Below are positions 12,771 through 14,710 of a stretch of DNA of 64,000 nucleotides, piece after piece; position 1 is the stretch's first letter, and each line of letters starts with the position of its first letter. The stretch lies in assembly GCF_003019035.1 (NCBI RefSeq), contig NZ_CP027447.1; one strand, 5' to 3'. The stretch comes from Escherichia coli (GTDB lineage: Bacteria; Pseudomonadota; Gammaproteobacteria; Enterobacterales; Enterobacteriaceae). The notes beneath the pieces were generated by a model. That model did not search any database. It was given only the letters and a program-made list of their open reading frames with translations, and was not told the DNA's origin. A program made the translations under genes and the position numbers.

Positions 12771-12972
12771 TTAAGTAACACCCACAATTATCGCCCACTA
12801 TCTGGTCCCGAAAAATGGGACCAGCGTTTCATATTATTAAGCATCAGCTTTCATTCATTTCTTCATCACAATCTTACAAAATGAGCGTTTTTTGATAGAG
12901 CAATTCTGCCAATACTTTATTTTATATTAATCAAATTAATACTATGAATAGAGAAAACGGAAGGAGCGTTCT

Positions 12973-14670
12973 ATGCAACTGCAACATGGAAAAAATAATA
13001 CACAACAATATATATTTGGCGACTTTGTATTAAAAAACAATGGAATATTATTATTCAAAAACAAAGAATATCATATTCCCCCGAAAGAACTTGGCGTTAT
13101 CATTCTATTACTTAATGCTGACGGTGAAATTGTTAGCAAAGAAGAGATTATCGATAAGGTCTGGAGCGCGAGTGTTGCCAGTGATGAATCTCTAACACGA
13201 TGTATTTATGCATTGCGCAAACTTTTGCATGAGAATAAACAGTGTAAGTATATCGAAACGGTCTATGGTCGTGGATACCGTTTTACTGTACCTATTGTGA
13301 TTGTGACCGATAATGAACCGGTAAAGTCGACCACTACTCTTGCCGTTTTTCCCTTTCGTACTGAAGGTTCGATCAATGTTCTAAAACTCCATTACGAACT
13401 TGTCCAGGGCCTTTCAAAATATGCTTTTTGTGGTTTAGATATTTTACCCGCTTCGGTAACAAATGAGGCCAGTGATTTCTCCACCATCCATCAGTTTATC
13501 AATAAAACAGGTCCAGAATATTATATTATGGGTCAGGTCGTTCACTATGGTAAAAACTGGCGTTTATTTATTGAGTTAATTCATGCCAGAACACATAAAT
13601 TGATTGATCATCAAAGTATTGATTTCAACCCCGATAATCCTCTTTCCGTATTATTATCACAATTAATTAATATTCTTATTGAAAAAATACCCAATATTAA
13701 TTTTAAATCTATTAATACACAACAAATGCCATCTCTGGATTCTGCTGTTATGTATATGAATGGCAGAATGGAAATGTACCGTTATACACCAGAGAGTTTG
13801 AAACGAGCATTAGTAATATTTAGAGATTGTGTGAGTACGCAACCGCAAAATACCTTGCCCTACTGTTGCCTGGCGGAATGCCATATATCATTAGCCCTCC
13901 TTGGACTCAGTGAACAAAAACAAGCAATAACTACGGCAGTAACCTCCATTGAAAAGGCTCTGGAAATTAACCCTTCAAATTCTCAGGCATTGGGTTTACT
14001 GGGTTTAATCAGTGGGCTAAAAGATGAACATTCAGTGTCTAATGTGCTATTTAAGCAAGCACATTTACTCAAACCTAATTCGCCAGACGTTTATTATTAT
14101 CAGTCTCTGCTATGTTTTTTGAACGGTGACCTAGCAAGAGCATTTAATTTAATAGAAAAAAGCATTGCTCTTGAACCCAATAAAATGGGCATAAGCATTC
14201 TTAAATTAATGATACTTTATTATACATCCCCCCTCGATAACGCGATATCTTTTGCATTAAATCTTAACAGTCAAAACACCTGTAATAATCCAATTATTAC
14301 CTCTATTCTGGCTATGTTCATGGCACTGAAAGGACATAATGACAAAGCCAAAAGTTTATTGCTTAAACTTGAGCCTGAACATGGTCTTGATTACACCTGT
14401 GTTAACTCGCTTTATACGAAGTTTCTGATCTATGGCGCATCTATAAAAAATGACATTATGAAGTTACTGGCAAATATTAACACTAACAAAATCAATGGTG
14501 TGATTTTGCCGTTAATTTACACTGTTTATGGTAAGAAAGAATATGAAAAGCGCTGGCAACAATTAATTAAAGAGAATGATTTATGGTCAAATGTTTTGCT
14601 TCATGACCCCCGTTTGCTCAGTGTAAAAAATGAATTTAATACTATTGGTGTGATGCGTACTTCTGCGTAA
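12973..14670 (+). CDS. eilA: HilA-like transcriptional regulator (OmpR/ToxR-type winged-helix N-terminus, TPR-like C-terminus)
   Basis: 565 aa; N-terminal winged-helix-like motif (YIETVYGRGYRFTVP); long helical-repeat C-terminal region; size and architecture as HilA; adjacent to the translocator operon. Confidence 0.7.
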   Translation: MQLQHGKNNTQQYIFGDFVLKNNGILLFKNKEYHIPPKELGVIILLLNADGEIVSKEEIIDKVWSASVASDESLTRCIYALRKLLHENKQCKYIETVYGRGYRFTVPIVIVTDNEPVKSTTTLAVFPFRTEGSINVLKLHYELVQGLSKYAFCGLDILPASVTNEASDFSTIHQFINKTGPEYYIMGQVVHYGKNWRLFIELIHARTHKLIDHQSIDFNPDNPLSVLLSQLINILIEKIPNINFKSINTQQMPSLDSAVMYMNGRMEMYRYTPESLKRALVIFRDCVSTQPQNTLPYCCLAECHISLALLGLSEQKQAITTAVTSIEKALEINPSNSQALGLLGLISGLKDEHSVSNVLFKQAHLLKPNSPDVYYYQSLLCFLNGDLARAFNLIEKSIALEPNKMGISILKLMILYYTSPLDNAISFALNLNSQNTCNNPIITSILAMFMALKGHNDKAKSLLLKLEPEHGLDYTCVNSLYTKFLIYGASIKNDIMKLLANINTNKINGVILPLIYTVYGKKEYEKRWQQLIKENDLWSNVLLHDPRLLSVKNEFNTIGVMRTSA

Positions 14671-14680
14671 TAACGAATAT

Positions 14681-14710
14681 AAATTGCCCTGCTGATGCAG
14701 GGCAATTTAG
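14681..14710. terminator. Putative bidirectional intrinsic terminator between convergent eilA and the adhesin gene
   Basis: Perfect hairpin TTGCCCTGC-tgat-GCAGGGCAA with A/T runs on both sides, in the 51-nt gap between two convergent stops. Confidence 0.5.

Follow-up and report, generated by a model that had tools for sequence, protein, structure and literature searches.

This analysis concerns the regulator gene eilA in a 64,000-nucleotide (nt) stretch of Escherichia coli DNA (contig NZ_CP027447.1 of assembly GCF_003019035.1; hereafter the window), and in particular a short sequence in the 202-nt region that precedes the gene. This 17-bp box lies 75 nt before eilA, resembles the sites of the activators InvF of Salmonella and MxiE of Shigella, is conserved upstream of EilA-family genes in other species, and is quite probably a functional promoter element. 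From the sequence we infer that the eilA promoter is activator-dependent, with the box placed over the -35 region and preceded by TTCAT repeats. We lean slightly towards the view that ETT2 (type III secretion system 2 of E. coli) together with the eip island possesses an InvF/MxiE-type cis-element of its own, ATGAGCGWWTTTTGATAG, which stands before the HilA-type master regulators, unlike in SPI-1 (pathogenicity island 1 of Salmonella), and also before the translocon operon and before two genes, not recognised until now, whose products have an EspG/VirA-like predicted fold, and that eilA not only heads the cascade but is also one of its targets. The eilA gene itself is already known and was characterised in 2006; the conserved upstream box is the only item that looks new.

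A conserved box upstream of eilA and its relatives

The gene eipD ends at position 12770, and the intergenic region (12771-12972, 202 nt) is followed by an open reading frame (ORF) that starts with ATG, spans 12973-14670 and encodes 565 residues. A side-by-side reading of the upstream regions of eilA and of eicA, the first gene of the preceding operon, revealed a common 20-mer. The pattern TGAGCGWWTTTTGATA has five matches in the window at up to two mismatches, against 0.17 expected, and still five when three mismatches are allowed, while a control region of 50 kb contained no match. Apart from one orphan, all copies lie upstream of a gene and point toward it. The ETT2 of E. coli SCU-301, a genome near-identical to the present one, contains one exact box (L004, 25141-25156) about 87 nt upstream of ygeF, which is followed by ygeG (SicA-like) and ygeH (HilA-like), so that eilA and ygeH, the two HilA-family genes of the system, are both found downstream of a box. 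The copies in the window and the elements around the eilA copy are as follows:

3623-3638, minus strand: orphan box copy TGAGCTATTTTTGATA with one mismatch, between the selC-adjacent rhuM fragment and setC, with no ORF downstream
7610-7626, plus strand: box copy TGAGCGAATTTTGATAT, 61 nt before eicA
12802-12824, plus strand: intrinsic-terminator-like hairpin ending the eicA-eipBCD operon (terminator scan; folding free energy -14.7 kcal/mol, z -3.9); the stem is kept in Escherichia albertii with a different loop
12828-12866, plus strand: cluster of TTCAT repeats (TTTCAT-tcattt-CTTCAT at 12849-12866), a candidate EilA/YgeH site with possible autoregulation, as a lead only
12882-12898, plus strand: InvF/MxiE-type box TGAGCGTTTTTTGATAG, 17 bp, which includes the -35-like TTGATA; 75 nt before eilA, recognised by pattern matches and conservation
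12917-12925, plus strand: conserved TTATTTTAT with the candidate -10 element TATTTT at 12918-12923, 19 nt after the box and invariant between E. coli and E. albertii
12959-12966, plus strand: Shine-Dalgarno sequence GGAAGGAG, 6 nt before the ATG and kept in E. albertii
38640-41881, minus strand: two paralogous ORFs of low guanine-plus-cytosine (GC) content (38640-40154 and 40369-41664) each behind an exact box (40271-40286 and 41866-41881), candidates for effectors of ETT2 that belong to the same regulon

The orphan copy at 3623-3638, which E. albertii lacks at the corresponding place, may be left over from the promoter of a gene that has been lost.

With two mismatches or fewer, the box occurs 58-93 nt before the start of the EilA-family gene in E. 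coli, E. albertii, E. fergusonii, Yersinia enterocolitica and two metagenomic lineages, and these six matches compare with about 0.003 expected by chance. The EilA-family gene of Chromobacterium violaceum has an upstream match with three mismatches, and the box is kept upstream of EilA-family genes in seven of the eight lineages. The spacing between box and ATG is equal in E. coli and E. albertii, and the most divergent E. coli allele carries 20 changes in the 202 nt, a single one of them between box and -10 candidate. Among the genes preceded by a box are the eicA operon, in three lineages, and the two ORFs whose products have an EspG/VirA-like predicted fold. In the region before eicA, the three eip lineages share a single long invariant stretch, the 21-nt box block AAAATGAGCGAATTTTGATAT.

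The comparison of E. coli with E. albertii, whose EilA proteins are 76% identical, leaves a footprint of five conserved blocks in the intergenic region, namely the stem of the eipD hairpin, TTCATCA(c/g)AATC in the TTCAT cluster, the 29-nt sequence AAAATGAGC(g/a)TTTTTTGATAG, the sequence TTATTTTAT, and the Shine-Dalgarno sequence. The longest of these is the block that holds the box. The inferred order would be first a terminator, then a promoter that depends on an activator, and then a short 5' untranslated region of about 42 nt. A simple scan of the intergenic region for a canonical sigma-70 promoter gave no match on the plus strand, which is consistent with an activator-dependent eilA promoter.

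An RNA leader was considered as well and rejected, as the Rfam search of 7000-15200 returned only a chance hit (E 0.97) and the segment 12925-12990 has no significant fold (z -0.44). An earlier note on this DNA, made from the letters alone, had called the region a leader, which is a misnomer for a stretch that holds the eipD terminator hairpin and a promoter.

The hairpin after eipD is also relevant for the view that eilA lacks its own promoter and owes its expression to read-through from eicA-eipBCD, with the conserved blocks serving termination or RNA processing. The gene has the same orientation as eipD, the gap between them is just 202 nt, and the T-tail of the hairpin is imperfect (CGTTTCATAT), all of which would suit read-through. 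On the other hand, the hairpin is stable and conserved, and about 500 bp upstream of eilA act as a reporter promoter that is induced in lysogeny broth (LB) mixed with Dulbecco's modified Eagle medium (LB:DMEM; Fox et al. 2020, PMC7058095). In E. fergusonii, Yersinia and other lineages, moreover, no translocon operon precedes the EilA-family gene, and the box is nevertheless present at a similar distance. We regard the read-through view as scarcely credible and return to a promoter that belongs to eilA itself.

The earlier note had further described the 200 nt before eilA as very AT-rich and as a likely H-NS-silenced promoter. The GC content is 33.7% in the intergenic region, 35.3% in the eilA coding sequence, 37.5% in the island and 49.8% in the window, so that the description holds against the window as a whole but does not set the region apart from the island, where about 26% of all 202-nt segments are at least as AT-rich. 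Only the 3' part (12896-12945, 20% GC) is exceptional, and no peak of AT-richness at the promoter relative to the flanking island DNA was found for the eilA intergenic region. By analogy, H-NS silencing of the eilA promoter is plausible. H-NS repression has been shown for the paralogue ygeH (PMC4210603), H-NS also represses ETT2, and MxiE- and InvF-dependent promoters are described as H-NS targets in two papers (PMC9769918, PMC7595419).

The same observations, together with an island of 37% GC in a genome of 50% GC, could be read differently: the promoter would be AT-rich and H-NS-silenced, and the box would be a good -35 element (TTGATA) with a T-tract, which the promoters of the island share through common descent and which no dedicated activator serves. 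The intergenic region is, however, no more AT-rich than the island. The TGAGCG half of the box, which lies outside any -35 element, is conserved like the T-tract between lineages whose proteins are 46-76% identical and whose flanking sequences cannot be aligned, and the spacing of 20 nt between TTGATA and TATTTT is wrong for an unassisted sigma-70 promoter. H-NS silencing and a specific activator can coexist. We think that a promoter without a dedicated activator is very unlikely, and that the box is better understood as the site of a specific activator.

Candidate factors for the box

The eilA box is identical at 12 of 16 positions to the Shigella MxiE box GTATCGTTTTTTTAnAG (consensus from PMC9769918) and at 14 of 17 positions to the Salmonella PsicA element TGGGCGTTTTTTGAATG, as read from Salmonella DNA. 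The MxiE box and the InvF site of PsicA both serve activators of the AraC type, which require a free translocator chaperone (IpgC in Shigella, SicA in Salmonella). A T-rich 17-bp box over the -35 region (the putative one in eip/ETT2), placed before a translocator-chaperone operon, is common to the MxiE/InvF systems and to eip/ETT2, and in PsicA the InvF site overlaps the -35 element (PMC7595419). The MxiE box ends 33 bp before the transcription start, its essential positions are G6, T10, T12 and A16, and virA is one of its genes (PMC3299695). The -10 candidate 19 nt after the eilA box implies a spacing that fits this geometry, with the start itself being a candidate, and all four essential positions are present in the E. 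coli copies before eilA and eicA, before ygeF and in the islet that contains the two ORFs at 38640-41881. The eip/ETT2 box differs from the MxiE box in its 5' half (TGAG, not GTAT) and in the G at position 13. It also precedes HilA-type regulator genes, which is not known for Salmonella hilA, and the VirF/VirB/MxiE cascade of Shigella has no HilA-type gene.

A cognate-type AraC activator, EivF, and two SicA-like chaperones are encoded in the genome, with EicA scoring 151 bits and YgeG 125 bits against the SicA model. The most likely assignment of the box, to EivF and a chaperone, rests on the orthology of eicA with sicA, of EivF with InvF and MxiE, and of EicA and YgeG with SicA and IpgC. As EilA has been published to activate eivF and a box lies before eilA, a closed positive feedback loop would result. 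On this analogy, we modestly favour the view that the box depends on EivF and a chaperone and closes a feedback loop on eilA.

Several points weigh against this assignment or reduce its reach. The step from box to factor rests on analogy, and the score of EivF against the InvF model, 185 bits, is under the equivalog cutoff of 259. Position 6 of the box varies in the leaders of the EilA family, where G, A, T and C all occur (A, T or C in species other than E. coli), and in one divergent E. coli eip lineage (L006) no box was found before eilA. Salmonella hilA is without such a box, so that the proposed wiring has no precedent in the best-studied relative. EivF together with YgeG failed to activate two MxiE-box genes in E. 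coli (PMC9241512), a result that also fits a separate specificity of the eip/ETT2 box with its distinct 5' half. With respect to H-NS, no data on eilA were found in the papers that mention both, nor in the text and supplements of the hns transcriptome of strain 042. Finally, Sheikh et al. (2006) may already discuss the eilA promoter. Four versions of the box sequence are absent from the searchable full-text literature, which does not extend to subscription papers such as Sheikh et al. (2006), the lone match being an unrelated human primer, and the papers on EivF in the same literature describe no binding site.

The promoters of air, eivF, eprH and Salmonella prgH, which a HilA-type protein should bind directly, have repeats of the TCAT type in place of a box. 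The box is absent (more than three mismatches) upstream of air, eivF and eprH, with six mismatches in the best match before air, and it was not found in Salmonella PprgH; upstream of Salmonella hilA, the best match in 1,090 nt has five mismatches. These absences bear on a different reading, according to which the box is the binding site of EilA and/or YgeH, eilA regulates itself, and EilA acts directly on eicA without EivF or a chaperone taking part. The box indeed precedes both HilA-family genes, eilA and, via ygeF-ygeG-ygeH, its paralogue. Expression of eicA-eipBCD has been published to depend on EilA, as reported by citing papers, and hilA is called a target of HilA in a title from a reference list. 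Yet air, eivF and eprH depend on EilA or YgeH and have no box, and EilA works on the Salmonella HilA targets although PprgH has none. OmpR-type winged-helix proteins usually need a direct repeat in their site, and the box has no internal direct repeat. Its agreement with the InvF-dependent PsicA element speaks against a HilA-type site as well, and the separate TTCAT repeats are better candidates for such a site. We therefore consider direct binding of EilA or YgeH to the box improbable and retain EivF with a chaperone as the favoured factor.

The TTCAT cluster contains four repeats, where 0.3 are expected at the rate of the island (P 3e-4), and the TTCATCA(c/g)AATC block within it is shared with E. 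albertii. Salmonella PprgH has the arrangement TTTCAT-N5-TTTCAT and the eilA intergenic region TTTCAT-N6-CTTCAT; this comparison with the PprgH sequence is a lead only. In the eicA promoter region (7484-7493 and 7521-7534) one finds the 10-mer TTCATCAGGA, which also stands in the 3' half of the PprgH repeat (L014, about 6050-6075), as well as TTTCATTTCATCAC. Seven of the eleven plus-strand TTCAT pentamers of the island fall in the upstream regions of eicA and eilA, and they are candidate EilA sites.

The two box-preceded ORFs at 38640-40154 and 40369-41664 form a low-GC islet between ilvN and uhpA and are paralogous (27% identity, E 5e-25). Searches of Pfam, NCBIfam, PHROG and PDB sequences gave no match and no sequence-level link to EspG/VirA, while the predicted fold of both proteins is EspG/VirA-like. 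Homologues were found only in E. coli, with 40-99% identity. The islet is present in 1,110 of 5,426 genomes, including O157:H7, and both boxes are exactly conserved. We regard these proteins as candidates for ETT2 effectors under the same regulation.

Box-like sites with one or two mismatches were also seen before unannotated ORFs in E. fergusonii (L007, 18145-18753) and in another lineage (L011, 5501-6409). These ORFs, of 202 and 302 residues, adjoin SPI-1-like type III secretion clusters and may be further effector candidates.

EilA and the eip island

The gene behind the box is, with practical certainty, eilA, whose product is the HilA-family activator of transcription in the selC-linked eip island. 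A region of 1,940 bases around it is 100% identical in DNA to E. coli SCU-301, and the whole window is collinear with that genome at 99.93-99.98% identity. The eilA region has a counterpart with 93-100% identity in 730 of the 5,426 complete E. coli genomes, and all 731 matching records carry the annotation "eilA: HilA family transcriptional regulator EilA". The gene order selC...yicS-eicA-60-aa ORF-eipB-eipC-eipD-eilA-air is that of the eip island, so that an orthologue is indicated both by near-identity and by the synteny eicA-eipBCD-eilA-air beside selC. Around the promoter region the locus contains:

7687-12770, plus strand: translocon operon of eicA (SicA-like chaperone), a 60-aa ORF, eipB, eipC and eipD (SipD-like), published EilA targets (family matches; PMC4210603)
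12973-14670, plus strand: eilA coding sequence, 565 residues, with the winged helix at residues 31-104 (nt 13063-13284) and tetratricopeptide-repeat (TPR)-like repeats at residues ~307-426 (nt ~13891-14250)
14680-14709, both strands: hairpin with a 13-bp stem between the convergent genes eilA and air, a bidirectional terminator candidate (folding free energy -21.6 on the plus and -21.0 on the minus strand, z about -7)
14722-27306, minus strand: air/eaeX/iatC, convergent to eilA, encoding a 4194-aa inverse-autotransporter adhesin, a published EilA target (PMC7781526)

The protein matches the NCBIfam model NF009037 (HilA/EilA) with 952.4 bits, above the cutoff of 589, its residues 1-552 covering profile positions 2-553, and it is 99% identical to the main EilA cluster of 4,075 member sequences. 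The N-terminus is an OmpR/ToxR-type winged helix without receiver domain (Pfam Trans_reg_C, PF00486, residues 31-104, E 8e-16), and residues 12-109 match the DNA-binding domains of CadC, ToxR and PhoB in the PDB. The TPR-like repeats at residues ~307-426 give weak individual Pfam matches (TPR_2, E 0.009; ANAPC3, E 0.002), and chains of designed TPR proteins in the PDB match residues 320-404 with E 5e-17. A PDB sequence search located no solved structure of the HilA/EilA family. The alignment with Salmonella HilA extends over 544 residues without any gap (37% identity, 61% positives, E 3e-131), with 58% identity in the winged helix and 28-39% elsewhere, and the identity with the ETT2 paralogue YgeH is 34% over 429 residues.

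These data confirm what the earlier note had proposed, namely a HilA-like protein of 565 residues with a winged helix and helical repeats, here with 952 bits to NF009037 and 37% identity to HilA, which is encoded between a translocon operon and a giant adhesin gene while the secretion apparatus is elsewhere. Upstream of eilA are the homologues of SicA (eicA), SipB, SipC and SipD, and no apparatus gene for type III secretion was found within the 64-kb window. The note had considered the regulon an open question and suggested a deletion experiment on whether EilA controls the adhesin, the ETT2 genes or both, and this has been overtaken by the literature. According to papers that summarise Sheikh et al. 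(2006, Mol Microbiol 61:338), through which the regulon is cited here at second hand (PMC4210603, PMC7058095, PMC11068852), EilA modulates eicA, eipB, eipC, eipD and eaeX/air and also two unlinked genes of ETT2, eivF and eivA, so that the published answer is both. In the same summaries, eilA and air mutants show lower adherence and less biofilm. EilA can also substitute for HilA in Salmonella, where it acts through invF and complements a hilA mutant (Huttener et al. 2014, PMC4210603). As written, the earlier finding re-discovers a gene that was characterised in 2006 and adds little to it.

EilA of enteroaggregative E. coli 042 is the same gene, with 565 residues and the same selC-linked site between eipD and air/eaeX, and there is no substantive difference except that the host here is near-identical to the human commensal isolate SCU-301. 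Salmonella HilA of SPI-1 is collinear with EilA, with an N-terminal OmpR/ToxR-type winged helix followed by TPR. Its gene lies inside SPI-1 beside iagB and has a 1.1-kb upstream region without an InvF-type box, whereas eilA is remote from the apparatus, directly after the translocon operon and behind a box-bearing region of 202 nt. YgeH, the paralogue from ETT2 of the same genome, is likewise encoded downstream of an exact box, via ygeF-ygeG. It is shorter (458 residues), lacking the C-terminal ~110 residues, and it is expressed in LB, whereas eilA reportedly is not.

A hilA-like position of the EilA-family gene, beside an iagB-like transglycosylase gene, was seen in five lineages, namely E. 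fergusonii, Y. enterocolitica, Chromobacterium and two metagenomic ones (L007, L008, L011, L012, L013), and in four of the five the gene also adjoins prg/org genes. E. coli and E. albertii have a split arrangement, in which the regulator gene stands beside the translocon genes and away from the apparatus, and this arrangement looks derived. ETT2 with eivF, ygeG and ygeH lies about 1 Mb from the eip island in SCU-301. The SCU-301 record marks two of the apparatus genes as pseudogenes, which may reflect assembly errors, as the same assembly differs from the window by small indels only.

Some further features of the islands were observed. The 60-aa ORF between eicA and eipB (8194-8376) is a hypothetical protein in RefSeq and has no family match. 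The adhesin gene air/eaeX/iatC is a single intact ORF of 4194 residues here, and the SCU-301 record annotates air as frameshifted and split. Its central block of immunoglobulin-like repeats (about 17000-24000) has 61-63% GC, against 37-40% both at the 3' end of the gene and in the island next to it. The L006 lineage (Logan ERR3329175 contig) represents a second, divergent eip-type island of E. coli with an EilA of 57% identity and a box before eicA. In this island an invasin-like adhesin is encoded upstream of eicA and not downstream of eilA, and insertion sequence fragments are present.

A proposed feedback model for the eip/ETT2 system

In the model that we propose, the low-GC island is probably silenced by H-NS at rest. 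EilA would switch on eivF, which encodes the InvF homologue, and EivF, jointly with EicA or YgeG as the free translocator chaperone, would act on the box. The operons eicA-eipBCD and ygeF-ygeG-ygeH and the two genes for proteins of EspG/VirA-like predicted fold would then be driven from the box, as would eilA, and the outcome would be a positive feedback that is coupled to secretion activity. This explanation as a whole, with eilA under its own promoter, is the one that we hold with good confidence, the box-driven loop of EivF and chaperone being its most likely form.

ETT2 occurs in most E. coli outside phylogroup B2 and is intact in the bloodstream lineage ST69. A review from 2024 calls the ETT2 effectors "unidentified" and the function of the system obscure. 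If the model is true, the box would account for the link between the apparatus and an eip island that lies apart from it, simple reporter assays for the conditions that turn the system on could be built on it, and the long-sought regulon and effectors of the "cryptic" ETT2 could be predicted genome-wide from sequence.

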